Virus record (IMG/VR): IMGVR_UViG_3300031718_000003
Coordinates: 1 to 64,000 of that record
Length of the DNA: 64,000 nucleotides
Direction: 5' to 3' (one strand)
Origin: a virus
The notes below the pieces were generated by a model that was not told the DNA's origin, did not search any database, and worked only from the letters and a program-made list of their open reading frames with translations. The translations under genes were made by a program, and so were the position numbers. Numbering within the stretch: the first letter of the stretch is position 1; every line of letters starts with the position of its first letter. Shown here piece by piece: positions 2,172-62,888 of this stretch.

Positions 2172-2730
2172 ATCCCTTCACCCTCTTCGCAGTCGATGGT
2201 CACCTTCACACAGGCGATACGCGGTTCCTCGTAGATGCGCCCTTCTGGCTTGGTGAGGTGTAAAAAGATGCTGCCGTCCTTGAAGACGTTGATCCACACG
2301 TCCCGCTTGATGCGACGCGGCATGTTGACCAGGTCGAGGGTATCCAAACCCGAATAGTATTCGCCCCGCCCCGTCCATCGGCCCAACTGCCACTCGCCGG
2401 AGGTTGGCTTAGCAATAGACCCATGTATTGGATATGCCCCACCAGCATCCGTTGCGTAGATCCGCACCTCGCGTCCGTCCCGCGTGCGCATATGCTTTGA
2501 GAGATCGAGCGTCGGCTTCCCTGGCTCTCCCTTTGGGCCGGGGCAGTCGGTTCCCCCGGCATAGTAGATACCGCAGTTCTTGCAGCGCGCCGTGTCCACG
2601 ATGGTCCATTTGTGGTCCAAGTGTGTAACGACGCATGGATTGGAGTCTGTGATCCATCCGTTGTCACGGAGTTTGCCGCAGTTCTTGCAGCGCAGCTCCT
2701 CGATCGTGGTCCAGTCGTGTTTCACGCGGT
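2168..2730 (-). CDS. hypothetical phage protein with CxxC pairs (start approximate)
   Basis: RTRDGREVRIYATD...YPIHG motif typical of small phage proteins; two CKNCG motifs. Confidence 0.5.
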
Positions 2731-3085: not shown

Positions 3086-3160
3086 TGGAGTCTGAAACAG
3101 GATTTGAACCTGCGACACCTCGATTAACAATCGAGTGCTCTACCGCTGAGCTATTCAGAC
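3086..3160 (-). tRNA. tRNA-Asn (GTT) with encoded CCA
   Basis: Minus strand GTCTGAA TAGCTCAGCGGTAGAGC A CTCGA TTGTTAA TCGAG GTGTC GCAGG TTCAAAT CCTGT TTCAGAC T CCA folds into a cloverleaf. Confidence 0.9.
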
Positions 3161-8997: not shown

Positions 8998-10815
8998 TTA
9001 GCCCGGAATTCTACAGGCCAATTCTGGACGCAGAGTCTTACAGCCTCCGAGCACATCGAGACGCGTGATGCGCCGGTTGGTGCCCATGATGAACCCGCGG
9101 GTCAGGCGCATACTGAGCCCGATCTTGGGATTCGTTACACGTTCGGACCAGTCCAATCCACCCGGTGTCTCAAGCTGTACGACAACCAGCGTGAAAGCAT
9201 CCCTGTGAAATGCGAGGGCCTGTGGAGAGCTGACCGCCGACATCGCCGTGATGGTCGCGGCAACCGTCGAGTTCCAGATCTTGATCGAAGCGGAAGCGGC
9301 CGGCAATGCCGCCACGGTCTGGAACGGGTCCGTGGGGTCGGCGGAAATGGGCGGCGAGATGTTGACGGTCGCGGCGCCGGCGCCGGAACCACTCGTCACA
9401 TCCGCAGTCACCACGAACGTGCGCAGTACGCCCGTATCGCGATAGCTGATGGGATTGACAGAATTCACCCCGAGGATCGAGATGATGTCGCCGCGATTCA
9501 GCACCTGGGTGGACGCGGTCCAGCCGGTGGTGAGAATCGAGGAGCCGCTCTGATTGGCGGCGGTGGTCATGGTTGGAACCGAGAGCGTGAAGGCGCCGGT
9601 GGTAAACCGGGTCACGTTCTGGTCCATCGACCATTTGAAGCCCAGCCCGATACCCATCGTTCCCGAGAGGTACTGCTCGGAGATGGTCTTGGGCGGGTTG
9701 AATAGCGCCGCGCCGAACTCAACCGCCGCCGCTTCCATTTCGGGCGATACGGTCAAAGCGCGGAGTTTCCCGACGGGAGCGCCGGAATTGGAAAGCTGCA
9801 CGCCCGCCGAGGTGTAAACCGTGCGGGTCGTTGGCGTGACACCGGGCTGCGTGCCGATCGCCAGGTTGTAGACGTCGGCGTAGAGGTCGAGTACTTCGCC
9901 GTCGATCTTGTTGGCTATGGTTTGGACCGCAGGTTCGATGTATCTTTCACCGAATCTGTCGATCGTTAAAGTGAGGTCCTGGTCGGAAACGTCGAGATCA
10001 CACCTGAATGTTCAGTTCGGGGCGTTAGGCCGAACCCGTGGCCAAAAAGCCACCGCTGCACGTCACCGTGCACGAGCGGACCATGTCACAACCCCCAGGT
10101 TTCCCCGTGGGTTCTTCCCATTTCGGCTCACTTGAGCCTACGAGCTTTCGCTCTGGTCTCTGCGCCTTCTCCACGCTGCTCTGTGGAGCTTGGTTCACAG
10201 TTGTCTTCCGGATCGTTTCCATGGATTGAAAGAGATTCTGTGAGTTAAGGAAGTTTCTTCAATGGCGATTGCTCGCCAAGGGGGCTAGTTGATCCAACCC
10301 CACAAACGATTGATCGTGATGGGGACTGCGGTCTCGCGGATGTCCTCGGGCTGCGCGGCATCGCCGACGCGGCCACGAAACCTGACGGGAATTCTTCCGT
10401 TTACAGTGTCGTTGACGTTACGATAACTTCGCTAGAGATTATCGGAGCTTGCTCAGTTGAGCAAGGCTTGCTCACCTTTCGATGAGGACCAGACTATATC
10501 ATCGCCCCGAAGGGCGTCCCGCGCTTCCGGCCGCTCGGCCGTACTCCCCGAAGGGATAGTCGTTGAACCTTCTCATCGCTGAGCTTGGCTGCTGATTGCC
10601 CTGGCGTATTGCGCTTTAGGTTTCCAGCAATTCACGGGATTTACAGTCAGGATCACTCCTGACAGGGGCTACACTATTAACCCGATTTTGTTGCCGGGTA
10701 GGGCGAAGTCCTGATCGAACTCGCGGTTCACGTTCTTGAATTGGACCAGGTTGTTTTCCAACCGCATGAGCGAGTTCTGTAGAATCGCCACAGGGTTGAG
10801 TAGTTCGTTTGCCAT
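8998..10815 (-). CDS. P22-type major capsid protein, three exons (10815-10680, 10409-10297, 10002-8998), 417 aa after splicing
   Basis: Spliced read MANELLNP...KIGYTVNGRIPVRF...RLWGCDLDVSDQDLTLTIDRFGERYIEPAVQTIANKID...LAFHRDAFTL...TRLDVLGG...RPELACRI matches the P22 coat family pattern; exons total 1254 nt in frame. Confidence 0.88.
10003..10296 (-). ncRNA. group I intron 2 in coat gene, no ORF
   Basis: 5' exon GGGGU pairs with intron GCCCC (U-G splice pair); R-like GCGCAGAGACCA and S-like GTGACATGGTCC; terminal G; removal restores frame. Confidence 0.82.
10410..10679 (-). ncRNA. group I intron 1 in coat gene, no ORF
   Basis: P AATTGCTGGAAA, Q AATCAGCAGC, R GTTCAACGACTA, S ATGATATAGTCT; P1 GGGU/GCCC; P10 AGUGU with exon ACACU; terminal G. 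Confidence 0.9.
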
Positions 10816-21049: not shown

Positions 21050-22480
21050 TCACGTCATCCAGCTCCGATCCCCGCCTGGCACATGGACAGCCGACGGCCT
21101 CGGCTGCGGCTTCGATGTCAAAGTTTTCAGACCCGTGGTGGACAGGACGTACCGGACGCAATCCATCAAATGGTCGTTTTTCTTCACGATCTTGCCCTTC
21201 TCGTCCCGATGATAGCGCGAGATCTCGCGGCGAAAGTTCTGAAGATGCTCCTGAACCTTCAACCTCCCCGATACCAGCCGCTCCCACACGATTTGAATGC
21301 CGGTCTCGACAGCGTTCTCACAGGGATGGAGCATCAGACCGGCCTTGCGGTAATGCTCCATCAGAGAACGGCCATCCACCTGCGAGCTTTGGAGGCAGCC
21401 GGGATCGACTACGCCATGTATCCACTCGCCCCTGGCGCGGATCGCCATCGCGTGGGAAGCTGGCTCGCCGGCGCTTTGATAGTGTTCGTCGTAGAGGACC
21501 AACTGCCCGTTGCCGGGATTCTCGGCCGCCCACAAGGCCGCCGTGAGCCGCCAGCCCACATCGAGTGCATAGACGCGCCGCCAGGAGGCGGGAATGGGCG
21601 CGGTCTTGATCAGGAAGTCCTCTTCCGGCAGGGGATAGATGGCGCCCGCGCCGAGCGACGGCTCGCCGAGTGTCCGCGCTTTGATCTGGTAGGCGGGAGT
21701 CGTGGCAATCAGGATGTCCTTCTCCGCCTGCTCCATGTGCGGAACGTCCTTCCAACCGGCCTGTATCCAGAATTTGTGCGCCGCGGCGCCTTCCTTCGGC
21801 TCCAGAAATCCGGTTACAACCTCACTCATGCCCTGGAGCGGCGTGAAAGTGGTGTAGAGAATCCCGCGGGTTGTGACGGTGCGAAACAGGATCTCGGTAT
21901 AGATGTCCTCCGGAGGCTCTTCGTCGAGCCATGCGAAGTCCAGTGAGACTCCCTCGAAGCTCTTCCGGCCCTGCTCGTAGGTCTTCAGCCCAACGCTCGA
22001 CCAGGCGCCAGAGACGTGCTTTACCCAGATCGTCTCGATCGATCCGCTGAGACCTGAGCGGCGCGGAAGCGTCTTCACGATCCGGTCCGCCGGGATCATG
22101 CCAGTGCCCTGCGCTTCGAGTGTGCCTGCGAGTTTGAACTGCACGATATTGCGAGTGCTCTCCGAGGTCGTGCCGCACGCCCAGCCCGCGGTAGGTCCAC
22201 TGAAGCGCTTCCCCGTCCACCACACCGGATAATTTCCAGTTAGATGACAGGCGGTCTCGTACGCGCCCGCATCTGACTTCCCGATGCGATTCGCGGCGCA
22301 GAATAATCTTTCCTTGTACGTCGCGCCGGCGGCGAAGAATTCGAGCTGCTTCGGATAAAGCGCGCGCCGGCGCGGCCCCGTCTCCGGGAAATATCCCCGC
22401 CACTTGTTGCGCTTCTGGAAGTCCAGGGCCGCCTGAATGGTGCCCAGATCGACCATGTCCGGTAAGCTGACAACGGTCAC
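21050..22480 (-). CDS. terL: terminase large subunit (P22 gp2-like)
   Basis: Walker A AANRIGKS, Walker B AWLDEEPP, TFTPLQG, nuclease LDVGW...NDHLMDCVRY. Confidence 0.93.
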   Translation of the reverse strand: MTVVSLPDMVDLGTIQAALDFQKRNKWRGYFPETGPRRRALYPKQLEFFAAGATYKERLFCAANRIGKSDAGAYETACHLTGNYPVWWTGKRFSGPTAGWACGTTSESTRNIVQFKLAGTLEAQGTGMIPADRIVKTLPRRSGLSGSIETIWVKHVSGAWSSVGLKTYEQGRKSFEGVSLDFAWLDEEPPEDIYTEILFRTVTTRGILYTTFTPLQGMSEVVTGFLEPKEGAAAHKFWIQAGWKDVPHMEQAEKDILIATTPAYQIKARTLGEPSLGAGAIYPLPEEDFLIKTAPIPASWRRVYALDVGWRLTAALWAAENPGNGQLVLYDEHYQSAGEPASHAMAIRARGEWIHGVVDPGCLQSSQVDGRSLMEHYRKAGLMLHPCENAVETGIQIVWERLVSGRLKVQEHLQNFRREISRYHRDEKGKIVKKNDHLMDCVRYVLSTTGLKTLTSKPQPRPSAVHVPGGDRSWMT

Positions 22481-22902: not shown

Positions 22903-22982
22903 AATGTGTTTTCCTTTTTTGCTTCGTGGTCAGTAGACTGCGCTCTCAGCGATCCGCCGTTTGCGTTCGGACCCGTCAAGAG

Positions 22983-23167
22983 ACTCGAGGTGCAGTTTTC
23001 CCTTGCATTTCCACTGATTCCCATTTAGACTGTAAAGCGTTGATAGAGCGCAGTTTATGTGAAAATATTTCATTGAACACTTATCGCCCCCCGATAAGTG
23101 TTCCGTTCGATTTCCCAATGTTTTGGCACTTTGTCGATTTGCGCTCGGCTGGGCATAGAAAAACAGG
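22983..23167 (+). repeat. 185-bp direct duplication of the rep-internal segment 40777-40961
   Basis: About 6 mismatches by eye; contains TTGCAT-17-TAGACT and CACTTATCG-N5-CGATAAGTG. Confidence 0.92.
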
Positions 23168-23185
23168 AAATCAGCGTTGTCTTTA

Positions 23186-23222
23186 GTTGCAATATCCAGC
23201 TCACGGAAGAAGGTAGTGAGAC
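23186..23222 (+). CRISPR. solitary CRISPR repeat 1
   Basis: GTTGCAATATCCAGCTCACGGAAGAAGGTAGTGAGAC, one mismatch to array repeat 9 (61960-61996). Confidence 0.93.
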
Positions 23223-23804
23223 TCAGCTTCTGCTTTGCGCTCTCATCAGTTTCTGCTTTGCGCCCTCAAGCTCCTCTGCTGTAAATAGCTCCGCGAGCGC
23301 CGTAACGGCTACTGGGATCGCTTGGCCGCCTGGTCCGCTCAGTTCTTTGCGATCCACCCAGTCGCCCATCTCGTGCGCCACCTGTTCCTCGTGGAGGCGC
23401 ATCTCGCGCAGTATCCCGGTATCGACGAGGAACTCTTCTACGACTTGGCTCTCATCGCCCGCGCCGATCGACTTCAGTTGGCAGATAACCAGCCCGGTGC
23501 TGCCGCCTGGCGCTTTGCCGGCCAGCTTCGCGGCACGCTCACGGACGACCTGGTCCATGAGTGCGAGCCGCCGGTTCAGCCGCGCGAGGCGAACTTCCTT
23601 GACCGCAGCGCCGGACTCCTTCACGCGCTTGCGCCATTCCCCGACCCAGTGGTCCACCTCGCGGGCGAACTCCGGGGTGGCCTTCCAGCGTTGGATCTGC
23701 CGCGCGCTCACTCCGAGCCGCTTGCCGATTTCATCGTTCGTCAGGCCGCCGAGCGACACCATGCGCGCGGCTTTGTAACGCGTTTTATCCCAGGCCCAGT
23801 CCAC
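23223..23804 (-). CDS. terS: terminase small subunit (N-terminal HTH)
   Basis: LTNDEIGKRLGVSARQIQRWK.TPEF; C-terminal ELSGPGGQAI; upstream of terL. Confidence 0.8.
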   Translation of the reverse strand: MDWAWDKTRYKAARMVSLGGLTNDEIGKRLGVSARQIQRWKATPEFAREVDHWVGEWRKRVKESGAAVKEVRLARLNRRLALMDQVVRERAAKLAGKAPGGSTGLVICQLKSIGAGDESQVVEEFLVDTGILREMRLHEEQVAHEMGDWVDRKELSGPGGQAIPVAVTALAELFTAEELEGAKQKLMRAQSRS

Positions 23805-23806
23805 GA

Positions 23807-24013
23807 GTTAGCGCACCCGGGGCACAGACCCCATCGAGCCACTGAAGATGCCGAAGACACTCAGCAGCCACAGCACGACGCAGATGATAACCACGACGTT
23901 CAGGAAGTTCTTGATGGGCGGGGCCATCGGAATTAGGGCGCATGTCATTCAAGGTCATCCCACAAAAGCAGCACTATGACGACCAGGGTGATGATGAGAC
24001 TGATAATCGGCAT
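23807..24013 (-). pseudogene. disrupted two-TM small membrane protein (Thivi_2564-like)
   Basis: MPIISLIITLVVIVLLLW and IPMAPPIKNFLNVVVIICVVLWLLSVFG lie in different frames, with stops near 23935-23950. Confidence 0.55.
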
Positions 24014-24060
24014 GGCTTTTTTGTTCCTTTTTCAGACATTCCCATTTAGACTGTAAAGCG

Positions 24061-24097
24061 GTTGCAATATCCAGCTCACGGAAGAAGGTAGTGAGAC
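24061..24097 (+). CRISPR. solitary CRISPR repeat 2
   Basis: Identical to 23186-23222; preceded by ATTCCCATTTAGACTGTAAAGCG. Confidence 0.93.
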
Positions 24098-24100
24098 TTT

Positions 24101-24499
24101 TCAGACCTTGGCAGTTTCCGCCGGCAGCATGGGAAGTATGATCGGCGCCGTATCTCCCGGGCTCAAAGCAACGAGTTTGGCCATTCCCTGTCGCAGCAAT
24201 TCCATGCGAATCGTTTCCATCAGCACCATCTGATGTGTCGCGGCTTGGCGGGCGAGCTCGGCAACCTCCTTGGCGGACGTCACCGCTGTTGCGTTGACAA
24301 CGGTCGCGGCTTCGAGACGGTTCATTTGGTCCTTCAGGCTCGAGCCGGTATCCGTTTTGAATTCCATCGCCATCGCGAGAAGCACGGGATGCAGCCTGGC
24401 GACCACGCCGAGAAAACTAATCAGCTTCCAGAGCGCGGCAAAAATAGCGATTGTGCTTACAGCGCAGCCAGCGACCGCGGCTAAGGTTACCCAGTTCAT
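24101..24499 (-). CDS. hypothetical membrane protein, possibly lysis-associated
   Basis: N-terminal TM then GSSLKDQMNRLE motif; strong RBS. Confidence 0.55.
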   Translation of the reverse strand: MNWVTLAAVAGCAVSTIAIFAALWKLISFLGVVARLHPVLLAMAMEFKTDTGSSLKDQMNRLEAATVVNATAVTSAKEVAELARQAATHQMVLMETIRMELLRQGMAKLVALSPGDTAPIILPMLPAETAKV

Positions 24500-25045
24500 T
24501 CACTCCCTCCCCACTGGCTGATCTTCGCGCGGTGAGCCATCCGCCGTTTGCGCCTGAACTGTTCGCTACCATCTAGATAAGGCAGCGCGAGCGCCGCCGC
24601 ACGCAGCCCGAAAAAGAAGACGGCAACCACCACGATGACAACAACGTCAGTCATTCTCTGCCCAACCGGTACTCCGCCATCCCCAGCTCGCAGACGACCG
24701 ACATCTTGCGGCACAGGACTCCCAACCGTATGAGCACCTGCTCATGCGGTAGGCGCCGGTATTCGGCGTCAGACGCGGCCACCCTGATCTCGGCGCGCAG
24801 CATCTGGAAGCGTGCAAGCAGTGACTCCGCCGGAGGCTCGTAGTCGCGCGAGAAGGCCGCAGCGAGCTCCGCGGCTTCGCTCTCGTCCTGCGCCATAGAT
24901 TTCACTGCGCTTAAAGCGGTCATCGATCGCCCGCGTCCTGCCTTCGTTTTGGGCTGCGCCCGCATCGCTGAAAAAGGAGAGTTGCGCTCGGTTCAAAATC
25001 GCGATATGCTCTTTCGGTCCGCGTCCCTCGCGAAGGACTACGGCA

Positions 25046-25687
25046 TCACTTATCGATGTCGATAAGTGACTGGCTGGCCGCGCCCGCGCCTCTTTGGGGA
25101 TCTGACACGGTAAAGCCGGTCCCGCGCCCGCCGAGCGCTACGGCTGTTTCACAGTCGTTCGCGCCAACTCGCACCACGTCGTGATCACGGACCAGAAGCT
25201 GGTACCAAGCGGGCATTCCCGCGGGCGCTTTCTTCTGCGCCAGTGGCAGCAGCGTGTTGAGCACCCCGGCTGCTACATTGCCCGTCTTCACCAGCGAGGG
25301 CTTCGCTTTTACGACGTCCAGATTCATCAACGCAGCCAGGCCCGCCGCGGCGTAGGAGCCATACGCAAACGCCTGCGCCCAGAACGACTGTGTCTCGACG
25401 GTGGCTAGCAAATCGTTGGCTTGAGTGTTGATCAGAAAACCTATACCGTGCGCGGCCAGCTCCTGGTATATCTGGCCCGCCGGAACGTCCTGCTGCCCGC
25501 ACGCCACAACGTTCCAGACTGTGTAACTTGGCTGATCTTCGCGCGGTGAGTAGGTACGGCTGACCGCGCCAGGCACGGGCATACTGGTCGCGACACGCGG
25601 CTCTGGCGGAAGCTTCACCGCCGCGCGACGCGCGATACACGCGGTAAGAGCCAGCAACAAAATAGGAACGAATGCGCGACGACGCAC
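25046..25687 (-). CDS. putative lipoprotein
   Basis: Lipobox LTAC. Confidence 0.55.
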   Translation of the reverse strand: MRRRAFVPILLLALTACIARRAAVKLPPEPRVATSMPVPGAVSRTYSPREDQPSYTVWNVVACGQQDVPAGQIYQELAAHGIGFLINTQANDLLATVETQSFWAQAFAYGSYAAAGLAALMNLDVVKAKPSLVKTGNVAAGVLNTLLPLAQKKAPAGMPAWYQLLVRDHDVVRVGANDCETAVALGGRGTGFTVSDPQRGAGAASQSLIDIDK

Positions 25688-26341: not shown

Positions 26342-26866
26342 TCAACGTGCATGAGCGGCGCGCGCGTCCCTGCGGACGGGAATGATTTCAACGTCGGAAA
26401 CATCGACTTCAGTTGACGCGCCGGAACGCAGCAGATCGATCGCTATAACCAGCCGATGCTGCTTCTTAACACGAATAAGAACGCCCTCCAGGCCTTCGAG
26501 GGGTCCGCGCTTCACCCGTACGCGCGTGCCGGCCGTGAGTCCGGCGTCCCCATGGACCGGCTGCGGGGAGCTCATGAGTAGACGAAGCGCTTCAATCTCG
26601 CTATCCGGGATCGCTTCGATTTCCATGCCATGCCCCAGAATACGCGAAACTCCGCTGATTGAGAGCACGCTTACGCGCTGGTCGGCGGTGTCGGCAAATT
26701 GGCAAAACAGGTATCCGCGAAACAGTGGGACATCGACGAGGAGCTCGCGGCGCACGATCTGGATGCACGGAAGGAAGACGCCTAGCGCGGGCTTGCGGGT
26801 GATTTCGACAGAAACGCGTTGCTCGCAGTTGGAACGGGTCTGAACCGCATACCATCGACTCAGCAA
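26342..26866 (-). CDS. NusG paralog (UpxY/RfaH/LoaP-like antiterminator)
   Basis: WYAVQTRSNCE, PLFRGYLF, KOW VRVKRGPLEGLEGVL; at the head of the late region. Confidence 0.88.
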   Translation of the reverse strand: MLSRWYAVQTRSNCEQRVSVEITRKPALGVFLPCIQIVRRELLVDVPLFRGYLFCQFADTADQRVSVLSISGVSRILGHGMEIEAIPDSEIEALRLLMSSPQPVHGDAGLTAGTRVRVKRGPLEGLEGVLIRVKKQHRLVIAIDLLRSGASTEVDVSDVEIIPVRRDARAAHAR

Positions 26867-39543: not shown

Positions 39544-40236
39544 TCACGGGACGCGCTCCATGCTTCCATGGAGATTCGCTTCTAGTTCACGAATTTCGCG
39601 TTCCCGCTCTTCGTCGCTTTTTCGCGGCGTTTTTGCCATGGAGTCGGCAAGTTCCTTCTCCATAACCCGCGAGTTGCCAGGCGCGCACTGCGCGATCTTC
39701 CGTTTCTTCTGTGCGGCCTGATACTCCTCTTCCGGGTACAGGTGGCGGATCGCTTCGAGGTCCGCAGCTTGTGGGCGGGGTATTCGGGAGTGCTGGATCA
39801 CACGCGCTACGAGTTTGTCGGATTGAGCGTCGTTACTGGCGATCTGGCCGGGTAATAGCCTCGCTCTTGGTGGCGCTTCAAGTTCCGGGGTGATCACGGC
39901 GCCCAGCAGCTTCTTTTGCTCCGCTGCGGTGAGGATCTTCGGGCCGGCCCAATTCGGGTTCTCGGAAGGGACCCCGTCCGGATATACGGTGGAGTGGACT
40001 TCAAAGCCGTCGAGGGGTGTGAATTTTGAGCAGTACACCGCACGTAATTCGAGTGGGCCAGGCCATTCATTAAATAGAGCCACAGCGCGCGCTGCTAGCC
40101 AGCAGACCTGTGTATCATTCGCGCACATGCGCCCGATTAGATTGCCGATCTCCGCCCGCGTGCCGGGTTCCGACGGGAAGAACTTGAGCTGCGCCAGGAC
40201 GTCGAGAGCTTCGTTTAAAGCAAGCGCGCTAACCAC
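39544..40236 (-). CDS. hypothetical protein, possible helicase loader (follows Rep)
   Basis: Position and coupling downstream of the replication initiator. Confidence 0.45.
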   Translation of the reverse strand: MVSALALNEALDVLAQLKFFPSEPGTRAEIGNLIGRMCANDTQVCWLAARAVALFNEWPGPLELRAVYCSKFTPLDGFEVHSTVYPDGVPSENPNWAGPKILTAAEQKKLLGAVITPELEAPPRARLLPGQIASNDAQSDKLVARVIQHSRIPRPQAADLEAIRHLYPEEEYQAAQKKRKIAQCAPGNSRVMEKELADSMAKTPRKSDEEREREIRELEANLHGSMERVP

Positions 40237-41434
40237 GGGGTTCCTTTCTCATTTGCCGCGCGTAGAGAATCTGCATCGCTTCCTGGTTTTTACCCGCTGC
40301 CCTTCCGCCGCGCGGATCCGGCGGAATTGACTCCCATTGCCGGTTATCGATCATGTCGCTCAGGGTGGGTTTGCAGAATTGCCAGCCTTTTATATCCCAG
40401 TACACGGCCCATGCAGCGATGCCGGATTCAATGTCATCGAGACGCACGCCGAGTCTGACCGCATCGCGAATCATCGTCTGGCAGGTATCGCGGCTGGCCC
40501 GGCGTCCAGCGCCGGTTTTTTTCCAAGAACGAAAGAGCTTGTCGAAGCGTGTCCGAAATTCCGGGTCGGAGAGTGTAGGCCGAGGGGGGGGGAATTCGCC
40601 GCCCCCCGCTTGCGGGGGGTAGGGGGGTTTCTCCTTAGTAGTTACAGTAGTCACATCCTTATATGTAGTTATCGGGGGGAGAAAGTGTTCGAGGGTCTTT
40701 TCGATAAGTGATGCGACCCCGGCTTCGATCTCTTTTTCGATAAGTGATCGCTTATCGATTTCGATAAGTGATGGTAACTCGAGATGTAGTTTTCCCTTGC
40801 ATTTCCATTGATCCCCGTTTAGACTGTAAAGCGTTGATAGAGCGCAGTTTATGTGAAAATATTTCATTGAACACTTATCGCCCCCCGATAAGTGTTCCGT
40901 TCGATTTCCCAATGTTTTGGCACTTTTTCGATTTGCGCTCGGCTGGGCATAGAAAAACAGGCGTGTAGGAGAGCCGGGGCCACCTCTCGATCCACGGCGA
41001 ATCTCACCGTCTTCGGCCATCGCCGTCAGCTCTGCGGACACGTTCGGCAATAGAATCCCCGTGTCTCTCGCGGCGTCCTGTGGCCCGGCGGGGACTTTCG
41101 CCAACTTGCCTTGCCGGTTGACGAGTTTCATGGCTGTCCGGCCGTGAAAGCGCGGCACGCCGGCCTTTGTGATGGAGTGCTGAATACTTCCGATGCCAAC
41201 CGTGGCCAGAGTGAACCAGGCGCGTAACCGCTCCCGCCGGGAGCATAGGGGACTGCGCATGATGTATTCCGCCCGGCGGCGGATGTCCTGAAAATAGCGT
41301 CCGGCGTCAAGCCCTAGATCTTTCGCGAGCACTTCATCGCGAGCGAGCCCCAGGCGCCGTAGCCAACTGGGATGGTCGGGCCCTTCTTTACCGACGGGTT
41401 TTCTTGCCTGGCGTTCCGCGGCGGAACCGAGCAT
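40229..41434 (-). CDS. phage replication initiator with internal origin
   Basis: wHTH-like N-terminus, KPPYPP linker, C-terminal F...W.../K....WE domain; internal iterons. Confidence 0.65.
   Translation of the reverse strand: MLGSAAERQARKPVGKEGPDHPSWLRRLGLARDEVLAKDLGLDAGRYFQDIRRRAEYIMRSPLCSRRERLRAWFTLATVGIGSIQHSITKAGVPRFHGRTAMKLVNRQGKLAKVPAGPQDAARDTGILLPNVSAELTAMAEDGEIRRGSRGGPGSPTRLFFYAQPSANRKSAKTLGNRTEHLSGGDKCSMKYFHINCALSTLYSLNGDQWKCKGKLHLELPSLIEIDKRSLIEKEIEAGVASLIEKTLEHFLPPITTYKDVTTVTTKEKPPYPPQAGGGEFPPPRPTLSDPEFRTRFDKLFRSWKKTGAGRRASRDTCQTMIRDAVRLGVRLDDIESGIAAWAVYWDIKGWQFCKPTLSDMIDNRQWESIPPDPRGGRAAGKNQEAMQILYARQMRKEPRG
40698..40893. repeat. iteron cluster / putative origin
   Basis: TTTCGATAAGTGAT x3 (40698-40772), palindrome CACTTATCG-N5-CGATAAGTG, AT-rich patch. 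Confidence 0.7.
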
Positions 41435-50438: not shown

Positions 50439-50783
50439 TTGCCTGCTCCTTTCGTCGCCAGCGCAAAACCGAAAAGAAACATTTCCAGAAGGTTGCAACC
50501 GGGCGCGGGAAGCGGTATGGTTTCCTGTATCCGATTAACGACGACAACATGATCAACCGGCCCTGAGCACTTATCGGCGTCGATAACTGATAGTGTTCGG
50601 GGCCGGGCTTCGGTCTTTAATTCCTGCATTTTGCTTCGCTCCTTTTCCCCCCTGTAGGGGAATCTCTGTACCGCAACCACTATAATGCGTAGCGGCTTCG
50701 CATGTCAAGGAAAAACTGCGGAGCTGCTGCGCATAAAAACCTTGCATTGCTGAGCGAACCGGCTTAGCATATACTTGTCGCTC

Positions 50784-53059: not shown

Positions 53060-53898
53060 CCCACGAACCCAAATGCCGTATCTGTTCGTGCACCGAGGAT
53101 CACGCCTGCGCCGGTGGGTGCTCCTGGGTGCATACGCCGCTCGATCGGAAGTTAGGGCCGATCTGCAGCACGTGCATCGGATTGATGGAGAAGTTGGCGG
53201 TGTTCACCGAGGATAGCCGGAACGGGAATCTGGCCGCTGTGATCCGGGCGTACAAGGAAGTGACGGCGCGGGCGCGGGCGCGGACAGACCAGGAAAGGCG
53301 GGAGGATAAACGGCATGAATCACGTTTACGAAGTGAAGTTCGAGACACGGTACACGGGATGGGGATGGCTGGAGGATAGTGCCCGCGTTCTCGCAAATGG
53401 AAGCGCCACGAAGGCCGTTGAGATGGTTCGGCGGCACGAGATGAAAGAGTCTTTTGAGGACTTCACCAAGGGCCACAAGCGCGTTATTCGCCGCGCCATT
53501 GGTTTTAGGATGACGGGCGTCCAACAGTTGACCCATGTCGACTACTAACGGAAGTGACGCGCGAGGAGATCGCGACATTCGAGCGCGAGCTACGAAAGGC
53601 CGGCGCATGACGAAGGCAAAAAGGCAGTCACCTCTTATCAGTTTGGCACGCGCGGCACGAAATAATCCGGGCGCGGCCTTGCAATTGGCTGCGATCAAAT
53701 ACCTGAAGGCCAAGGGCTGGAATGTGATTTTGATTGGTGAGATCGAGATTCAGACCTGGGACGCCGGAGATGCAGCCAAAGGGAAACACAAGCTGGCCGT
53801 CGGTTTCCAAGGTATCGGCGCTCAATCCTCTAGGCGCAAACGGCGGATCGGTGAGGGCAGCATCCGACCGACCCCGAAGCCATGAAGGAGACGAAATA

Positions 53899-56552: not shown

Positions 56553-58289
56553 ATGGCCGTGGAAACGAAAACTTATATCGCTTATACTTACGGCTGCCCC
56601 CAGCCCAATCACCAGGTATTTAATTATGCCTTGGCCGAGATGCGCCGCCGCAACGATCTCTGGAACAAACTAGTCGAAATAGATCGCCGATTTCGCCTAG
56701 CTTCCTGGAATATCTATGCGGATGTCCCCGAACAGAAAATCGCCGATGAGTTGGCGGGCGTGATCAGGGCGTGGCGCGAAGAACTCAAGGGCCGCCGGCA
56801 AAAGGCGCGCCGCCGCGTGGATGCCACGGATCTCGTGGAAAAGATCAAAACTGCGAAGATGGAATTACGAGTCGCCTCTAAAACCGCTAGAATTGCCCGC
56901 CGTGCGGCCATCGAACGAAACCGGGCGGCGCTGAAGACCCTGGACGAATTACGCCGGTCCGAAGTCAATAAGGCGTGTCTTGCGAGCAATCTCTACTGGT
57001 GTAACTGGGATGAAGTGCTCGCAAAATACGAAGTAGCGCGAGTTCGCGCCATGAAGGCCGGGGTACTGCTACGTTTTCATGCATGGAGCGGCGTTGGAAA
57101 ACTCACTGTGCGGTTCCAAAAAGGGCTCGCTTCCGATCTGGTGTTTGGTGGGGATACGAGATTGCAAATCGATCCCGTCAACAGTGACGCCTGGAATTCC
57201 CCGGCGCGCAGTGTCCGCGGAAAAAGTATGTATACAAAAATTCGTATACGCATGGGATCACACAATCGCAAACCTGTATGGTTCGAAGCGCCCATGGCGA
57301 TGCACCGCCCGTTGCCGGAGAGAAGCGTGATCCGCACCGCCGCGATCGCCTCCGAGCAGATCGGAGGCGTTTTGCGCTGGCACGTCATCCTAACGCTTGA
57401 ACTGCCATCTGCGCGTCAGGCGAGGATCGGTCCGGCGGTAGGTGTAGATATCGGATGGCGCTTACTGCCTGGAAGGCTGCGGGTCGCATACTGGGTCGAT
57501 GAATATGGCGGCAAAGGCGAAATCGCGCTCTCCGACTCCATTGTCTCGCAATTCGCAAAAGTACGGGATCTTGATGCAATCTTGGGAAATCATTTCGAAC
57601 TCGCAAAGGTAAAACTTGGTGCGTGGCGCGCGGGGTATTTCGAACCGCTGCCGGAATGGCTCAATCTCACCCGTATGGATCAGTGGAGAGATCAGCGCCG
57701 GTTCTATGAGCTTTGGACACTCTGGAAGGATTCCCGATTTGCTGGCGACACTTATGGATTCGATACCGTATCCGAGTTTGCCGAGCGCTACGCTCATTTG
57801 CGGAACTGGCGCGAGAACTTACAGGATCAGGTCATCGCCCGCAGGAAGGACACGTACCGGAAAGCCGTATGCGATCTGCTCCGGAACCACGGGGACGTGT
57901 TTCTTGAGAAATTCGATCTTCGCAACATCGCTGAAACACCGGACCCGGAGACGAGTCCCACAGTAGTAGTAATGGATTCGGCTCGCCGCCGCGTGATTGC
58001 CGCGCCTGCGAGTTTGCGTGAGATGCTGGTCCATAAGGGCCAGTGGATGGAGGTTCCAGCACCGGGGACCACGCAGGAATGCGCCTGGTGCGGTTATGCC
58101 GCTGCCTGGGATGCGGCCCCAAGCATACTGCATCGTTGTGGAGGATGCGGAAAGCTCTGGGATCAGGATGAGAATGCAGCAGTCAACATCCTGCGGCGTG
58201 GTTTAGCGCAGATTGGGAGGGATTGGAAGCCGGAATTCGATCCGCGAAAAGCGGACGGGATGGAAGTGGCCGAAACCGTTGCGGGTTAA
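56553..58289 (+). CDS. cas12m: type V CRISPR effector, Cas12m (V-U1)-like
   Basis: 578 aa; LYWCNW...LRFHAWSGVGKLTVRFQ and MHRPLP resemble Cas12m; RuvC VGVDIGWR / VFLEKFD / WDQDENAAVNI; Zn finger; array begins 14 bp downstream. Confidence 0.8.
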   Translation: MAVETKTYIAYTYGCPQPNHQVFNYALAEMRRRNDLWNKLVEIDRRFRLASWNIYADVPEQKIADELAGVIRAWREELKGRRQKARRRVDATDLVEKIKTAKMELRVASKTARIARRAAIERNRAALKTLDELRRSEVNKACLASNLYWCNWDEVLAKYEVARVRAMKAGVLLRFHAWSGVGKLTVRFQKGLASDLVFGGDTRLQIDPVNSDAWNSPARSVRGKSMYTKIRIRMGSHNRKPVWFEAPMAMHRPLPERSVIRTAAIASEQIGGVLRWHVILTLELPSARQARIGPAVGVDIGWRLLPGRLRVAYWVDEYGGKGEIALSDSIVSQFAKVRDLDAILGNHFELAKVKLGAWRAGYFEPLPEWLNLTRMDQWRDQRRFYELWTLWKDSRFAGDTYGFDTVSEFAERYAHLRNWRENLQDQVIARRKDTYRKAVCDLLRNHGDVFLEKFDLRNIAETPDPETSPTVVVMDSARRRVIAAPASLREMLVHKGQWMEVPAPGTTQECAWCGYAAAWDAAPSILHRCGGCGKLWDQDENAAVNILRRGLAQIGRDWKPEFDPRKADGMEVAETVAG

Positions 58290-58647
58290 CGATTTGCGGA
58301 GCCGTTGCAATACCCAGCTCACGGGCGAAGGAAGTGAGACAATCAGTCCGGTTGGTCCCGATTCAGTCCCGATTCAGGGTTGCAATACCCAGCTCACGGG
58401 CGAAGGAAGTGAGACGATAGACACGGCAGCATCGAAAACGACACTAAATATGTTGCAATACCCAGCTCACGGGCGAAGGGGTAGTGGGGTCTTTTGAATT
58501 TCCACCGTCTTGATTTTCAGTCATGCTGGAATTGTGATTCCTCCGGCGTTTCCTCACTTGCTGCCTCGCTTTCCCGGCGTCCCGTGGCGCTATCCGCGAC
58601 CGCTCCCGCAGGTATATCCTTGGAAGGCTCCAAGGAGAGCAAGAGCC

Positions 58648-59451
58648 ATGACGATAGCGGTCGGGGTCCTGGCAGGTGATGGGGTGGTGTTAGCAGCGGA
58701 CACGGAGTACACGTGGGGCTATCTCAAAACGAGCGGAGAAAAGATATGGACCGCTGAAGGCCACGGAGCCTTGGCCATTGCGGGCGCTGGCAATGGTGCG
58801 TACTTGTCCGCAATCGCTCAGCAGATGATTGATGCGTTTAAAGCTGCGCCGAAGACGATCTCCGTCGAGCGCCTTTACGAGAAATTCTCAGAAATCCTGA
58901 CAGACTTTCATAGCAAGCATGTCATAAGGTTCGCGCATCTCGGCAGTTCGGTCGCTATTTCGCTGCTAGTCGCGCTCCAACGAGGCAAGGAGGCGTATCT
59001 TTGGGCAAGTGAAAACGATTCCCTGGAGAGATGCGGACCCTATGCGTCCATTGGTTTGGGCTGCGAATACGCCAATGCCCTTTTGGGTGAGATGTTCGCG
59101 GGTACGGCGGTGTCTTGGAAGGCGAGCGTTCCGTTGGCTGAACGCATCGCGGCCTATGCGGTGTTTGAGACGAAAAACAACGTACGGGAGTGCGGAAAAA
59201 AAACCTCTCTCGTCGCCATCCAGAAGGGGCACATTGTGGAAACGAGCGCACAGAAGATGCTGCTCATTAATTCGCACCTCAATGCGTTTTCTGAGATCCG
59301 GATCTTGGGGACGAAATATGCTCTTGGGTTCCCATACCCCGACGCGACAAGTGCGTCAGAAAAACTCATGGCCTACTTGGGCGGATTGCGGCAAGACGTG
59401 CTCGCGATTGAAGGCCAAACCTTCGAAGGAAAAGGGCGGAGTCTTGAATAA
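58648..59451 (+). CDS. proteasome beta-like Ntn-hydrolase passenger
   Basis: M-TIAVG...GVVLAADTE...KI...AGAG...YASIGLG; Thr1 after Met; RBS AAGGAG. Confidence 0.65.
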   Translation: MTIAVGVLAGDGVVLAADTEYTWGYLKTSGEKIWTAEGHGALAIAGAGNGAYLSAIAQQMIDAFKAAPKTISVERLYEKFSEILTDFHSKHVIRFAHLGSSVAISLLVALQRGKEAYLWASENDSLERCGPYASIGLGCEYANALLGEMFAGTAVSWKASVPLAERIAAYAVFETKNNVRECGKKTSLVAIQKGHIVETSAQKMLLINSHLNAFSEIRILGTKYALGFPYPDATSASEKLMAYLGGLRQDVLAIEGQTFEGKGRSLE

Positions 59452-59456
59452 CCTCT

Positions 59457-60305
59457 CTAGGCGACACGGCTCAGTTCTCTCGTCTCGGACAACGCGACGA
59501 TCTCTTCGAACGACCACACATGATCCGCGATCCCGGCTGCCATTGCTGGCGTAACTCGTAGCGTCTGATGGATGCGCGCGAAGTTGTAATACATGTAGTG
59601 GAGGGCCACGGCTGCCTCGTGGTTCTCGATCTTCTTTGAAAAGCCGTTCGTCAACCGAGTGAAGCGGCGCATGGACATCCGCATTGTGAGATTCTGGCGT
59701 TCCACATAGCTCGTGCTGATATGCCTTGGTTCGGGATCGCCGAGTCGGATGATCTTCTCGGCGCCGGTGCAAACCGCAGGGCTGTACCGCTTTTGCGGCT
59801 CGGGTTCGTTGCCGAAGTATTTCACGAGCTGCGCGTAATCCACTTCGTCGGCGAAAGCATCAATCACGGCGTTGAGGTAAACTTTGTGGCCGTCCGTGGT
59901 AAGTTGGACACGATGGGCGAGTTTGCGTTCCAGAGCGGCGATGAATTCCGTGGCGCTGCCAGCTCCCCTATCGCCCACGAGCCAGCATGGAACAAGCTTG
60001 GTATCCGCGTCGATTGCGACCCAGACCCAAGCGTCGCCTACGACGCGCTCTTCGGCCATCTTCGTGGTGACGTTCTTCTGCTTGCAGCCGATATAGCTCC
60101 AGATCTCGTCACATTGAATACGTCGGCATTTCAGGTTGCGGAAGACGCGGTCCTGATAGCGGTAGCAGGCGATCCCGACCTCAACGAGGAGACGCGTCAC
60201 CGGGCGCTTCTCGTGGCCCGTCATGCGGCAGATGGAACGGATGGAATTTCCTTCGACGAGTGCGGCAATGATTCGGGCGCGTTCTCCGATGCTCAGCCTG
60301 TTCAT
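59457..60305 (-). CDS. IS1-family transposase
   Basis: HTH GNSIRSI.R, IQCDEIWSYIG.K, TTDG...Y, STSYVERQNLTMRMSMRRFTRLTNGFSKK. Confidence 0.93.
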   Translation of the reverse strand: MNRLSIGERARIIAALVEGNSIRSICRMTGHEKRPVTRLLVEVGIACYRYQDRVFRNLKCRRIQCDEIWSYIGCKQKNVTTKMAEERVVGDAWVWVAIDADTKLVPCWLVGDRGAGSATEFIAALERKLAHRVQLTTDGHKVYLNAVIDAFADEVDYAQLVKYFGNEPEPQKRYSPAVCTGAEKIIRLGDPEPRHISTSYVERQNLTMRMSMRRFTRLTNGFSKKIENHEAAVALHYMYYNFARIHQTLRVTPAMAAGIADHVWSFEEIVALSETRELSRVA

Positions 60306-60346
60306 AGGTCTATTATGCGCTAGCGCTCGCGCATAGTCAAGGGGAA

Positions 60347-60820
60347 ATGACGATGGCTAACTGGATAGATGAGTTATGCGAGGAGATTCTCCGGGATGGC
60401 CGCCACAAAAGCGTGGCGGAGGAATTGCGATTACACCGCGCCGGGGTACTGGAGCAGGAGGGCCGGTTTTTCTTTGAAGAGCTGAGGCGAGAGGTTAAAG
60501 ACGGGCTGCCGACCATAGGCACGCGCCTGGGCCTATCCCCAGCGGACCTCCGATTCGAGGGAAAGGACGATTTCTTCCAGATAACAAACCATTCTCACTA
60601 CCCAGTGGTCACCGTCAAGGCCGAATACATGCTGAAGCGGGTTTTGCTCAATATCAAGAGGAAGCAGGCTGATGTCCGCACTCCAGCGGAAGAGACGCGG
60701 GATTCTATCGATTTTTGTGTCAAGGCTGACGATGAGCTTTACTTCTGCCACAAAGGAACGACACTCCCGGGAATTGATGAGGCGGTAAAATTGGTATTCA
60801 GGCCGCTATTTTCCACCTGA
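60347..60820 (+). CDS. IS1 passenger, hypothetical
   Basis: Divergent from the transposase. Confidence 0.55.
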   Translation: MTMANWIDELCEEILRDGRHKSVAEELRLHRAGVLEQEGRFFFEELRREVKDGLPTIGTRLGLSPADLRFEGKDDFFQITNHSHYPVVTVKAEYMLKRVLLNIKRKQADVRTPAEETRDSIDFCVKADDELYFCHKGTTLPGIDEAVKLVFRPLFST

Positions 60821-60839
60821 TCCTTCAGTGCCCGTTAGC

Positions 60840-61229
60840 CTATTCGCCGGGCTGTTTGGCTGCTTGTAGCGCTTTGCGCCGGGCCGCCGCCGATACACTA
60901 TCGATCTCAGACTGAGGCGCGCCATTAGCTTTCAACGCAACGATCCGCAAGGCCTCCGGCACAGGAATCGCAAGATTCTCGGGTTCCTGATAGAACCGGT
61001 CTACGGCTTTTACTAGCTCAACCATGCTGAGCGGTTCTGGAATGTACGGGCGTGACGGAGAACGAGCTGCCCGTAACCCATCCAGAAAACCGACTAGGTA
61101 ATTCCCCTTGTCCATGAAAACCTGCCAGTGCCGCCCGTTGCACATGCCATTCGTAAAGGGCGGAATGGCTGGCTTTTCCTGAGCTACAGAGAGCAGAGTT
61201 AACGCAAGCAGAATCAAGGCAGGTTTCAT
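60840..61229 (-). CDS. IS1 passenger, secreted small protein
   Basis: Signal peptide; NG..W...YL.GF.DG...VDRFYQ.PEN..IP. Confidence 0.6.
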   Translation of the reverse strand: MKPALILLALTLLSVAQEKPAIPPFTNGMCNGRHWQVFMDKGNYLVGFLDGLRAARSPSRPYIPEPLSMVELVKAVDRFYQEPENLAIPVPEALRIVALKANGAPQSEIDSVSAAARRKALQAAKQPGE

Positions 61230-61486
61230 CGGGGATCTTTACCCGTTTTTCCCCACCGCGCCTGCGCAGCTCGCTTGGCCGAAGCCTTGCGCTGCGCTGG
61301 GCTGAGCCTTGCGTTCAAGGTGGCCGCGCCCTTTAGCCCGCCACGCCGCCCCATTTCGCGCATGATCTGAGAGACGGTGGAGCGGTCATCGAGATCTACG
61401 GGCAGTTCGGAGCCGGTGCTCTTAGCTACGATGGATGCAGCAAACTGATTGATGTCCTGCGATTTTGTCCGCGTGCGCTTGGGCAT
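61226..61486 (-). CDS. IS1 passenger, KGG-type basic protein
   Basis: DINQFA..IV...MGRRGGLKG...LSP.QR...AKRAAQARW; TTGACG-17-CATACT promoter inside the TIR end. Confidence 0.65.
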   Translation of the reverse strand: MPKRTRTKSQDINQFAASIVAKSTGSELPVDLDDRSTVSQIMREMGRRGGLKGAATLNARLSPAQRKASAKRAAQARWGKTGKDPR

Positions 61487-62888
61487 GACAGCTTCAAGTA
61501 TGGCAGGTTACGGGCCAACGTCAAGCCTGTGGAAATTCAAAAGACCCCACTACCGGCGAAGGAAGTGAGACTAGGAAGCTGTATCCGGCTCCCCGCGTTC
61601 ACATTCGTTGCAATACCCAGCTCACGGGCGAAGGAAGTGAGACCGATCAGTGCAAGGCGTACTCGCCGAATCACAAGGGGTTGCAATACCCAGCTCACGG
61701 GCGAAGGGAGTGAGACACGAAATCGGCAAGCGGCTCGGAGTGAGCGCGCGGCAGTTGCAATACCCAGCTCACGGGCAAAGGGAGTGAGACCTAAACGGCG
61801 TTCCAGTTCCGGCGGAATGCACTCCGTTGCAATACCCAGCTCACGGGCAAAGGGAGTGAGACGTGTCAAGGCGTGGCTGAAAGCAGTCAAGCTGCTCGCC
61901 AGTTGCAATACCCAGCTCACGGGCGAAGGAAGTGAGACAGCATCACGACCGTAAGGCCGGTTGCAATATCCAGCTCACGGAAGAAGGAAGTGAGACGCTC
62001 AATCTCATGTCGCTGTGACGCCCGGATAACTGTTGCAATACCCAGCTCACGGGCGAAGGGAGTGAGACAAGATTTAGAAACAGGTTTAACTGGAAGCAGG
62101 AAGGGTTGCAATACCCAGCTCACGGGCGAAGGAAGTGAGACAATATGGTGCTGCTTCGCTTTTCAGAAGTTGCAATATCCAGCTCACGGGAGAAGGGAGT
62201 GAGACGAGACGAAAGAATCGCAGCAACAGCGGGGGTGGGGGTATTGCAATACCCAGCTCACGGGCGAAGGAAGTGAGACTATTATGCCCCTCGGCATGTG
62301 TGAAAAGACCAACCGTAGTTGCAATACCCAGCTCACGGGCGAAGGGAGTGAGACCGTTAAAAGCATAGGCTAGGGGAAGACGGATTTTCGTTGCAATACC
62401 CAGCTCACGGGCGAAGGGAGTGAGACCGGAGCATATCCCGCTGAAGGTTCTTTGGAACGGAGTGTTGCAATACCCAGCTCACGGGAGAAGGGAGTGAGAC
62501 TCGGCAGATTTCCAGCGGGACCAAAGCCCGCAGAGCGGTTGCAATACCCAGCTCACGGGCGAAGGGAGTGAGACACATCTTGAGGGTTTCACGACAGAAG
62601 AGATGCCAACAGGTTGCAATACCCAGCTCACGGGCGAAGGAAGTGAGACAAACAAGTGCCCAGGTCAACAAAAATGTTTGGGGAGTTGCAATACCCAGCT
62701 CACGGGAGAAGGAAGTGAGACGTGGTCAACCGTTCCGAACGCAAACGGCGGACCGCTGAAGGCAGAGCCGGGCTGACCCAGGAAGAATTATGTGTGCGTT
62801 GCCAATTGGGGTCAAATGGGTCTTCATCCGGCCAGCGATCATACAAGAAAATGTCATCCTGTAAATTCACGGCATAGCTTGGCATAGT

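Follow-up and report, generated by a model that had tools for sequence, protein, structure and literature searches.

Solitary Cas12m repeats on either side of a phage terminase gene: candidate hard-wired guides against sibling phages

Why would a soil phage that carries its own Cas12m and CRISPR array also keep two isolated copies of the array repeat, one on either side of its small terminase gene? The question is raised by IMG/VR virus record IMGVR_UViG_3300031718_000003 (74,759 bp; estimated completeness 91%), of which bases 1-64000 form the window analyzed here. Each lone repeat points in CRISPR RNA (crRNA) orientation into the 3' end of a late gene, which is a small terminase-like gene (terS) for repeat 1 and a 132-aa open reading frame (ORF), orf132, for repeat 2. 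We tentatively propose that both serve as hard-wired genes for Cas12m guide RNAs, with near-identical rival phages as their targets; among the readings considered, this one is the best supported, although we hold it with less than even confidence.

In the proposed mechanism, a cassette would consist of a 23-nt motif (a probable promoter) and one intact crRNA scaffold, directed against the leftward late operon. The sequence 3' of the scaffold would supply a guide of 17-20 nt that corresponds to the last codons of terS (guide 1) or orf132 (guide 2). The scaffold end, GAC, would fill the position of the protospacer-adjacent motif (PAM) so that the phage's own copy is spared. A cassette-free sibling would present the same sequence beside its native pyrimidine-rich flank, and Cas12m binding there could block the transcription, replication or packaging of the rival at its late/packaging region. 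An array spacer against a synonymous terS allele could serve the same end. The mechanism presupposes that the cassettes are transcribed, that their RNAs load Cas12m, that the PAM is of the kind discussed below and that cassette-free rivals exist. It builds on the anatomy of the cassettes, the integrity of their scaffolds, an insertion signature and near-self matches within terS.

Two intact repeats bracketing terS

A fuzzy search of the whole record finds 21 copies of the repeat, all on the + strand, with 19 in the array region, two standing alone and no further lone copy. As the first-pass annotation had reported, the lone copies at 23186-23222 and 24061-24097 flank terS and are identical over 37 nt. 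They have four mismatches to the array consensus and only one (36/37) to the array repeat at 61960, which is their closest relative in the array. Their reported spacing from stop codons also holds: the end of repeat 1 (23222) abuts the TCA (stop) of the terS ORF at 23223-23804(-), and the end of repeat 2 (24097) lies 3 nt before the stop of the ORF at 24101-24499(-). Each is intergenic, 33-35 kb from cas12m and 838 bp from the nearest other repeat, which is well beyond the >100 bp by which a solitary repeat unit (SRU) is defined. Because of the helix positions and because cas12m lies on the same strand, their orientation can be recognized as that of a crRNA (5' repeat, 3' guide), and it is opposed to the leftward late operon.

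These repeats would lose their meaning if they were assembly artifacts, which is how the first-pass annotation had thought its observation might fail. To check the assembly, Logan contigs were placed on the region from three soil runs, each belonging to a different study. Those of run X1 span 23138-23215 (leader into repeat), 23194-23726 (repeat into terS), 23697-24090 and 24069-24800, so that all junctions between flank and repeat are covered. Run X2, from a second study, contains 23709-24084 with zero differences, and the depth on terS equals that on its flanks. The coverage and the even depth exclude an artifact, and the lone repeats are therefore real. No joint skipping the cassette occurs among the placed contigs, which is not evidence that such joints are absent.

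The crRNA scaffold of both copies is intact. An alignment of 23 distinct repeat variants, drawn from the phage itself, a lone repeat on soil contig L017 and the arrays of contigs L011 and L014, has 20 invariant columns. The lone repeats keep 20/20, and all four of their changes from the consensus fall in columns that also vary among array repeats. Helices 10-12:20-22 and 15-19:31-35 agree in position with the published description of the PmCas12m crRNA. Over the 23 variants, 99.5% of their cells are paired, and the lone repeats have all of these pairs. The sole pair with changes on both sides is 10:22, which goes from C:G to U:A in the lone repeats and in array repeat 61960. This pattern weakly suggests that the scaffolds are under constraint, given that the aligned sequences are related and that the L017 repeat has C-A at 10:22. 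With intact scaffolds of the phage's own Cas12m system in crRNA orientation, the earlier description of the two loci as mini-crRNA genes seems a fair one. Single-strand folding of repeat plus guide gives z-scores of about +0.7 to +1.3 and thus no signal, as expected for a scaffold that is a protein-held pseudoknot, and Rfam has no match at the lone-repeat locus.

An inserted unit and near-self guides

The block that the two loci have in common at repeat 2 comprises the motif (23) and the repeat (37), which is exactly 60 bp. A perfect 9-bp direct repeat, TTTTCAGAC, brackets this unit at 24029-24037 and 24098-24106, and no other 60-nt block in the genome is preceded and followed by the same 9 nt. 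The chance of such a bracket at a fixed site is ~4e-6. This figure applies because the boundaries are set independently, one by the end of the CRISPR repeat and the other by the start of identity with locus 1. The repeat 2 unit is therefore an insertion that moved as motif plus scaffold. If the unit and one duplicate are removed, a compact junction results in which the next small ORF has its ribosome-binding site after the orf132 stop. The rebuilt uninterrupted junction reads …GTTCCT TTTTCAGACCTTGGCAG… and matches guide 2 at 20/20 behind the pyrimidine-rich TTCCT, a flank complementary to this ribosome-binding site. As the genome now stands, guide 2 matches the copy that follows TTCCT over 9 contiguous nt only (15/20 overall), and the full match sits behind the repeat end GAC.

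A bolder extension, which we regard as doubtful, is that the 60-bp cassette is a portable guide-maker whose promoter and handle turn a resident junction into a guide that would see only cassette-free genomes. If this were true, sibling phages would be excluded at the packaging operon in an RNA-guided and allele-specific way, by means of PAM displacement. A Cas12 system would thereby have returned naturally to the logic of the TnpB omega-RNA, without DNA cutting.

The same anatomy could have a plainer origin, in which illegitimate recombination placed DNA from the array or a cassette in two gaps between genes. These copies would then be young and inert, or at most would allow terS to be looped out by recombination between direct repeats. 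This genome is rich in rearrangement, with an insertion sequence (IS) in the array, spacers of 21 and 27 nt, a bipartite element at 34 sites and a 185-nt element in two copies. The lack of any difference over 60 bases is not significant when compared with the 2.7% divergence of the 185-nt copies, and an essential gene is put at risk by identical direct repeats on either side of it. We nevertheless consider functionless by-products unlikely, since the four substitutions all avoid invariant scaffold positions, with one pair compensated, and the inserted unit is exactly motif plus scaffold. Moreover, both copies run in the same direction at 0-3 nt from a stop codon with no gene damaged, and the same arrangement is found in runs of at least two studies.

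If the lone repeats are instead guide RNA genes, their targets can be sought with the sequence that adjoins each scaffold. Work on PmCas12m and Cas12m2 (PMC10442227) gives a guide length of 17-20 nt, and the first 20 nt after each repeat were taken as the predicted guide. The second copy of a 23-nt tandem duplication at the 3' end of terS is a near-protospacer of guide 1, located 23 nt away with the 5' flank CTCTCA and matching at 17/18. The sole difference in the first 18 nt, at position 5, is AAG versus AAA, which is synonymous in the terS frame (Lys), and a second one, at position 19, is a Gly-to-Ser change. The array also carries a spacer that matches the phage's own terS except for one mismatch at spacer position 2, and this change (GAC versus GAT, Asp) is again synonymous. 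Two independent guides that miss terS by a silent change near the PAM end are expected if the guides match sibling alleles and the phage's own alleles have escaped. No other match of the spacers or guides within the genome exceeds chance (0.2-0.8 expected for the guides from shuffles). Taken together, the insertion signature and the synonymous near-self differences point to conflict with near-identical phages rather than to self-control.

Characterized Cas12m proteins are PAM-dependent binders of double-stranded DNA (PMC11013384, PMC10442227) that do not cut it (PMC11013384). Their PAMs are T- and C-rich (PMC11013384), with TTN for Cas12m2 and GoCas12m and YTN for PmCas12m. The PAM-reading residues known from Cas12m2 (PMC10442227) were mapped by alignment onto the phage protein and onto its PDB match 23vw, which is titled CRISPR-associated DNA-binding protein Cas12m. 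Both readers of position -3 (Trp152 and Gln197) are kept in the phage Cas12m. Those of position -2 (Tyr141 and Asn156) are Val and Asp in the phage and Val and Glu in 23vw, whereas GoCas12m keeps Tyr and Asn. With these readers changed, a PAM differing from T at -2 is plausible. The candidate flanks TCA, CCT and ACG all have C at -2, which is suggestive only, and TCA and CCT have a pyrimidine at -3. At the phage's own perfect guide sites, the PAM position is occupied by the repeat end GAC. The phage spacers and both guides have no match in any of the loci compared, and the spacers of the related L011, L014 and L020 arrays have none to the phage, so that neither comparison yields protospacers for deriving a PAM.

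An opposite reading of these matches is self-regulation, in which Cas12m loaded with RNAs from the lone repeats would act on the late/packaging operon of the phage itself. It could do so through the near-protospacer in terS or through the 9-nt seed with TTCCT in the promoter of cassette 2, which would be autorepression like that of tracr-L or CreA. In a variant of this idea, the loci would produce cis-antisense RNAs or act as convergent promoters against terS and the upstream ORF. Both cassettes do lie within one late operon and bracket terS, and binding to self would be tolerable because Cas12m is non-cutting (PMC11013384). A pyrimidine-rich flank precedes the 17/18 site for guide 1, the left copy of the 9-bp duplication forms a PAM-side seed for guide 2 over a putative promoter, and regulatory crRNA-like RNAs with partial matches are well known (PMC10120712). 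However, a non-cutting effector needs no mismatches, and synonymous near-self differences in the first 18 positions look like avoidance, not tuning. PmCas12m is also reported to be mismatch-sensitive, and the perfect self sites lack a plausible PAM. On balance we find self-regulation quite unlikely. The more specific proposal of the first-pass annotation, that the guides act antisense on the phage's own late mRNAs, is unsupported because characterized Cas12m proteins bind double-stranded DNA in a PAM-dependent manner and the PAM position at the phage's own sites reads GAC. We know of no RNA-targeting activity of Cas12m. Nothing was found that links the repeats to the lysis-lysogeny decision, a second form of control that had been suggested for them.

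The upstream motif, relatives and the late region

Expression of the guides would depend on the 23-nt motif ATTCCCATTTAGACTGTAAAGCG, which is probably a promoter and occurs at three sites in the genome and at no other. The identity of copies 1 and 2 was searched with a 20-nt core (23020-23039), and the full 23 nt read the same. An earlier claim that this motif stands upstream of both repeats calls for a correction: it adjoins only repeat 2 directly. At repeat 1 it lies 146 nt upstream, within a 185-nt element, and the third copy has no repeat. A transcription start had also been proposed for repeat 2 from its TAGACT hexamer. The predicted start, about 7 nt after the hexamer, would fall at 24058-24061 on the first bases of the repeat, but the resemblance to sigma-70 promoters is weak, and at repeat 2 the hexamer has no -35 partner. 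The phage encodes a tyrosine integrase, which makes it plausible that guides are expressed from a prophage in which the late operon is silent. Targeting of sibling phages would be consistent with such a temperate lifestyle and with the terS spacer of the array. A decayed repeat or a tracrRNA-like anti-repeat in the 146 nt between motif 1 and repeat 1 was considered and rejected, as its alignment scores do not exceed those of shuffles.

A search with a 19-mer of the repeat finds three overlapping soil contigs with related arrays and the unrelated contig L017, which has one repeat, and it finds no match among 185,579 species-representative prokaryote genomes. On L017, a 3.3-kb soil contig without recognizable genes, the lone repeat at 2323-2359(-) has three mismatches, shares the GGAAGAAGG variant of the phage's lone repeats and is directed into the 3' end of convergent ORFs. 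This repeat may be a rival element's decoy or another hard-wired guide. One of the three overlapping contigs, L020, is phage-like and has a terminase, a ParB-DUF5131 protein and a Cas12m that is ~50% identical in aligned segments. In this contig (7228-13698), the region ~1.3 kb downstream of the large terminase carries the 640-aa Cas12m along with a sister repeat, ending in GAGAG, in fragmented arrays. IMG/VR has no match for the terS or Cas12m protein. Nor does it have one for the 23-nt motif, the predicted empty-site junction, the lone-repeat variant in its exact form or a repeat 20-mer. The large terminase (TerL) relatives that it contains reach only 63% identity, and none has a homologue of terS, orf132 or orf140, or the repeat itself, nearby. 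The array region has no match in GenBank phages.

This distribution also bears on whether the lone repeats are RNA anti-CRISPRs (Racrs), which would soak up the Cas12m of a host, of a rival phage or, as a brake, of the phage itself, the guide being irrelevant. Solitary phage repeats behind promoters are an established anti-CRISPR class (PMC10651486), and those described here are solitary, intergenic and structurally intact. The similar lone repeat on L017 would be expected if rival elements mimic the repeat family, and related Cas12m arrays do exist on other phage-like contigs such as L020. Yet with a single-protein effector, a repeat and its flank make a working crRNA that would arm the phage's own Cas12m, and Racrs are by definition unassociated with cas genes, while this phage carries the cognate effector and array itself. 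The lack of the repeat 19-mer in the species-representative prokaryote genomes and of a recognized acr-like neighbor also tells against this function, which leaves the synonymous near-self matches unexplained. A Racr role seems improbable. For hard-wired guide genes, we count the presence of the cognate Cas12m in a genome that has no Cas1 gene, as well as the L017 repeat with its shared variant and its position facing convergent 3' ends.

Several observations weigh against hard-wired guides. There is no target duplication at repeat 1, nor at the L017 lone repeat, which in addition breaks pair 10:22. The CCT and TCA flanks do not fit the TTN and YTN PAMs measured for other Cas12m proteins. Motif copy 1 is separated from the repeat 1 scaffold by 146 nt that include a terminator-like hairpin, and the copy at 40811 occurs without any repeat. 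The arrangement TTGCAT-17-TAGACT of copies 1 and 3 scores 7/12 against sigma-70, a consensus scan made no call, and copy 2 lacks a -35 hexamer. In the late operon, the strand paired by the guides is the non-template one, a weak orientation for blocking elongation with dCas12a, although this rule may not hold for Cas12m. Finally, no cassette-free relative or rival terS allele was found, and this is uninformative because the searched collections hold no close relative of the phage.

The features of the locus and of the surrounding genome are collected in Table 1. The region that includes terS reads as a single leftward late operon, since the genes for TerL and TerS, the small ORFs and an antiterminator homologue are all on the same strand. 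Small membrane ORFs lie upstream of terS, which is itself just upstream of terL. The terS assignment can be considered reasonable without being strong; Pfam Terminase_2 is carried by P0005, one of the few homologues of the protein. The terS block has no foreign signature in its composition, and a second contig of 91.6 kb encodes an identical terS. Rfam also identifies a full-length group I intron (88.7 bits) at window positions 10470-10688(-) and a tRNA gene (71.6 bits) at 3089-3160(-).

Table 1. Coordinates of the lone repeats, their predicted guides and other features of the phage genome
Feature	Position	Strand	Details
Solitary repeat 1	23186-23222	+	Cas12m crRNA scaffold, 37 nt; 33/37 to array consensus
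Solitary repeat 2	24061-24097	+	Cas12m crRNA scaffold, 37 nt; identical to repeat 1
Predicted guide 1	23223-23242	+	First 20 nt after repeat 1; terS stop and last codons, antisense
Predicted guide 2	24098-24117	+	orf132 stop and last codons, antisense; first 9 nt are the right duplication copy
Left copy of 9-bp target duplication	24029-24037	+	TTTTCAGAC
23-nt tandem duplication	23223-23268	+	Copy A 23223-23245, copy B 23246-23268; 21/23 identical
Protospacer in the phage's own terS	23698-23734	-	36/37 by array spacer; 5' flank GAACG
Array spacer matching terS	61717-61753	+	36/37
23-nt motif copy 1	23017-23039	+	146 nt upstream of repeat 1, inside 185-nt element
23-nt motif copy 2	24038-24060	+	Directly abuts repeat 2; TAGACT at 24047-24052
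23-nt motif copy 3	40811-40833	+	1 mismatch; without repeat
185-nt element copy 1	22983-23167	+	Motif, TTGCAT-17-TAGACT (23003-23031), 12-bp hairpin (23075-23103)
185-nt element copy 2	40777-40961	+	97% identical to copy 1; no repeat after
cas12m	56553-58289	+	578 aa; PDB 23vw 5.7e-110; Cas12m2 2.4e-29; Pfam Cas12f1-like_TNB
CRISPR array	58304-62721	+	One array, 19 repeats, 18 spacers; split by IS1-like element in third repeat
IS1-like element	58480-61554		3,075 bp; 26-bp inverted ends GGTAGTGGGGTCTTTTGAATTTCCAC; 8-bp duplication GGCGAAGG
Large terminase (terL)	~21050-22480	-	476 aa true length; Terminase_6N 2e-22
Small terminase-like HTH gene (terS)	23223-23804	-	193 aa; HTH_23 2e-07; PHROG terS families 5e-07
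orf132	24101-24499	-	132 aa; N-terminal hydrophobic stretch; part of leftward late operon
Antiterminator homologue	26342-26866	-	7e-20; upstream of 24101-24499

What appear to be two CRISPR arrays are one, because an IS1-like element is inserted in the third repeat. This element encodes an IS1 DDE transposase at 59457-60305(-) and carries passenger ORFs, including an HslV-like one. We rejected the possibility that the 60-bp unit is a miniature of this element, as the ends of the unit are not inverted repeats and have no correctly oriented match to the IS ends. Two spacers of the array are short, 21 nt (61939-61959) and 27 nt (62142-62168), and the repeats that follow them (61960 and 62169) are variants with T at position 10, which suggests past deletions or recombination in the array.

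The terminator-like 12-bp hairpin of the first 185-nt element (23075-23103, + strand) carries the palindrome CACTTATCG/CGATAAGTG. This palindrome occurs at five places: 23078-23100, 25047-25068, 40872-40894, 50568-50589 and within the 40600-40780 region. The last of these, immediately to the left of the second 185-nt element, contains a cluster of direct TCGATAAGTG half-sites together with a G/C hairpin. With 15 sites found versus 2.7 expected, these features look like operators or iterons of some DNA-binding protein. A 401-aa open frame without family match (40229-41434(-)) crosses the second 185-nt element and the iteron region, and it probably consists of two genes and non-coding DNA that is in frame by chance. 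The bipartite element has the form AGGCGCAAACGGCGG - ~25 nt - ACCCCGAAG and occurs at 34 sites on both strands of the whole record (for example, 2742-2785 +, 22922-22964 - and 53836-53879 +). It usually ends 10-30 nt before a start codon and could serve as a promoter or 5' leader specific to the phage. In both copies of the tandem duplication, the last codons of terS resemble its first box.

Comparison with known systems

One parallel is with viral SRUs, a group in which many members function as Racrs (Faure et al. 2019; Camara-Wilpert et al. 2023, PMC10651486). Like them, each repeat described here is a single intergenic phage repeat, far from an array and behind promoter-like sequence, with its structure intact. 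In contrast, SRUs occur without cas genes and mostly mimic a host, whereas this phage has a cognate effector and an 18-spacer array. It also has two identical copies bracketing one gene, of which one shows an insertion duplication and has a flank that would make a meaningful guide.

A second parallel is with the omega-RNA (reRNA) of TnpB in IS200/IS605 elements, whose guide reportedly derives from flanking DNA and is directed at the empty site, in work attributed to Karvelis in 2021 and Meers in 2023. In the phage, too, the scaffold stands at the end of an inserted unit and the predicted guide is neighboring resident DNA. The phage insertion would likewise part a recognition motif, here a PAM candidate, from its target, so that an occupied site would be immune and an empty site recognized. 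The phage unit differs in having neither TnpA or TnpB nor transposon ends, and in having a 9-bp duplication, which IS200/IS605 elements are not known to produce. Moreover, with a non-cutting Cas12m, homing by break repair is not expected, and the effector is encoded 33 kb away. Cas12m nonetheless belongs to the Cas12 branch whose crRNA core is most like the TnpB reRNA (PMC11013384).

Guides carried by viruses against their relatives have precedents. Mini-CRISPR arrays of viruses are reported to exclude related viruses (Medvedeva et al. 2019, cited in bioRxiv 10.64898/2026.09.14.751636), and this preprint also reports a phage-encoded Cas12m in a myxophage. The phage studied here similarly has guides without an adaptation module that are apparently directed against close relatives, with its spacer matching terS at 36/37. 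Mini-arrays use acquired spacers, however, while the predicted guides of the lone repeats are the phage's own adjoining sequence.

Regulatory crRNA-like RNAs include CreA, tracr-L, scaRNA, crlRNAs and standalone repeats beside cas12a (Shmakov et al. 2023, PMC10120712). Like the phage loci, they have a standalone repeat-like sequence. The phage RNAs would further resemble them if their adjoining part, by partial pairing with a target, recruits the effector without cleavage. RNAs of the CreA type differ in lying within CRISPR-cas loci and targeting the promoters of cas or cargo genes, whereas the phage repeats are in the packaging region, 33-35 kb away. No promoter target was found for the phage guides other than the 9-nt seed in the upstream region of cassette 2 itself.

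The type V-K CRISPR-associated transposon (CAST) reportedly uses a delocalized short crRNA for homing to a host tRNA site, a finding attributed to Saito et al. in 2021. The phage cassettes would resemble this system, in which a binding-only Cas12 works with a lone variant repeat whose short fixed guide lies outside the array. The V-K guide drives transposon homing, but no transposition machinery is linked to the phage repeats.

Solitary repeats in phages, virus-borne guides against relatives and silencing by Cas12m are thus already known. Within a limited literature search, what appear to be undescribed are a unit of promoter plus handle that shares a phage with its effector, the target duplication of this unit and guides drawn from the ends of flanking genes. 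Phage-encoded Cas12m has only just been reported, and solitary phage repeats are now read mainly as anti-CRISPR decoys. If hard-wired guides were confirmed, they would mean that guides can arise without Cas1-Cas2, by moving the handle instead of the spacer, and that PAM displacement provides a simple rule for telling self from non-self. They would also add a case of virus-versus-virus conflict at the terminase module, and they would offer a natural design for compact programmable silencing cassettes.

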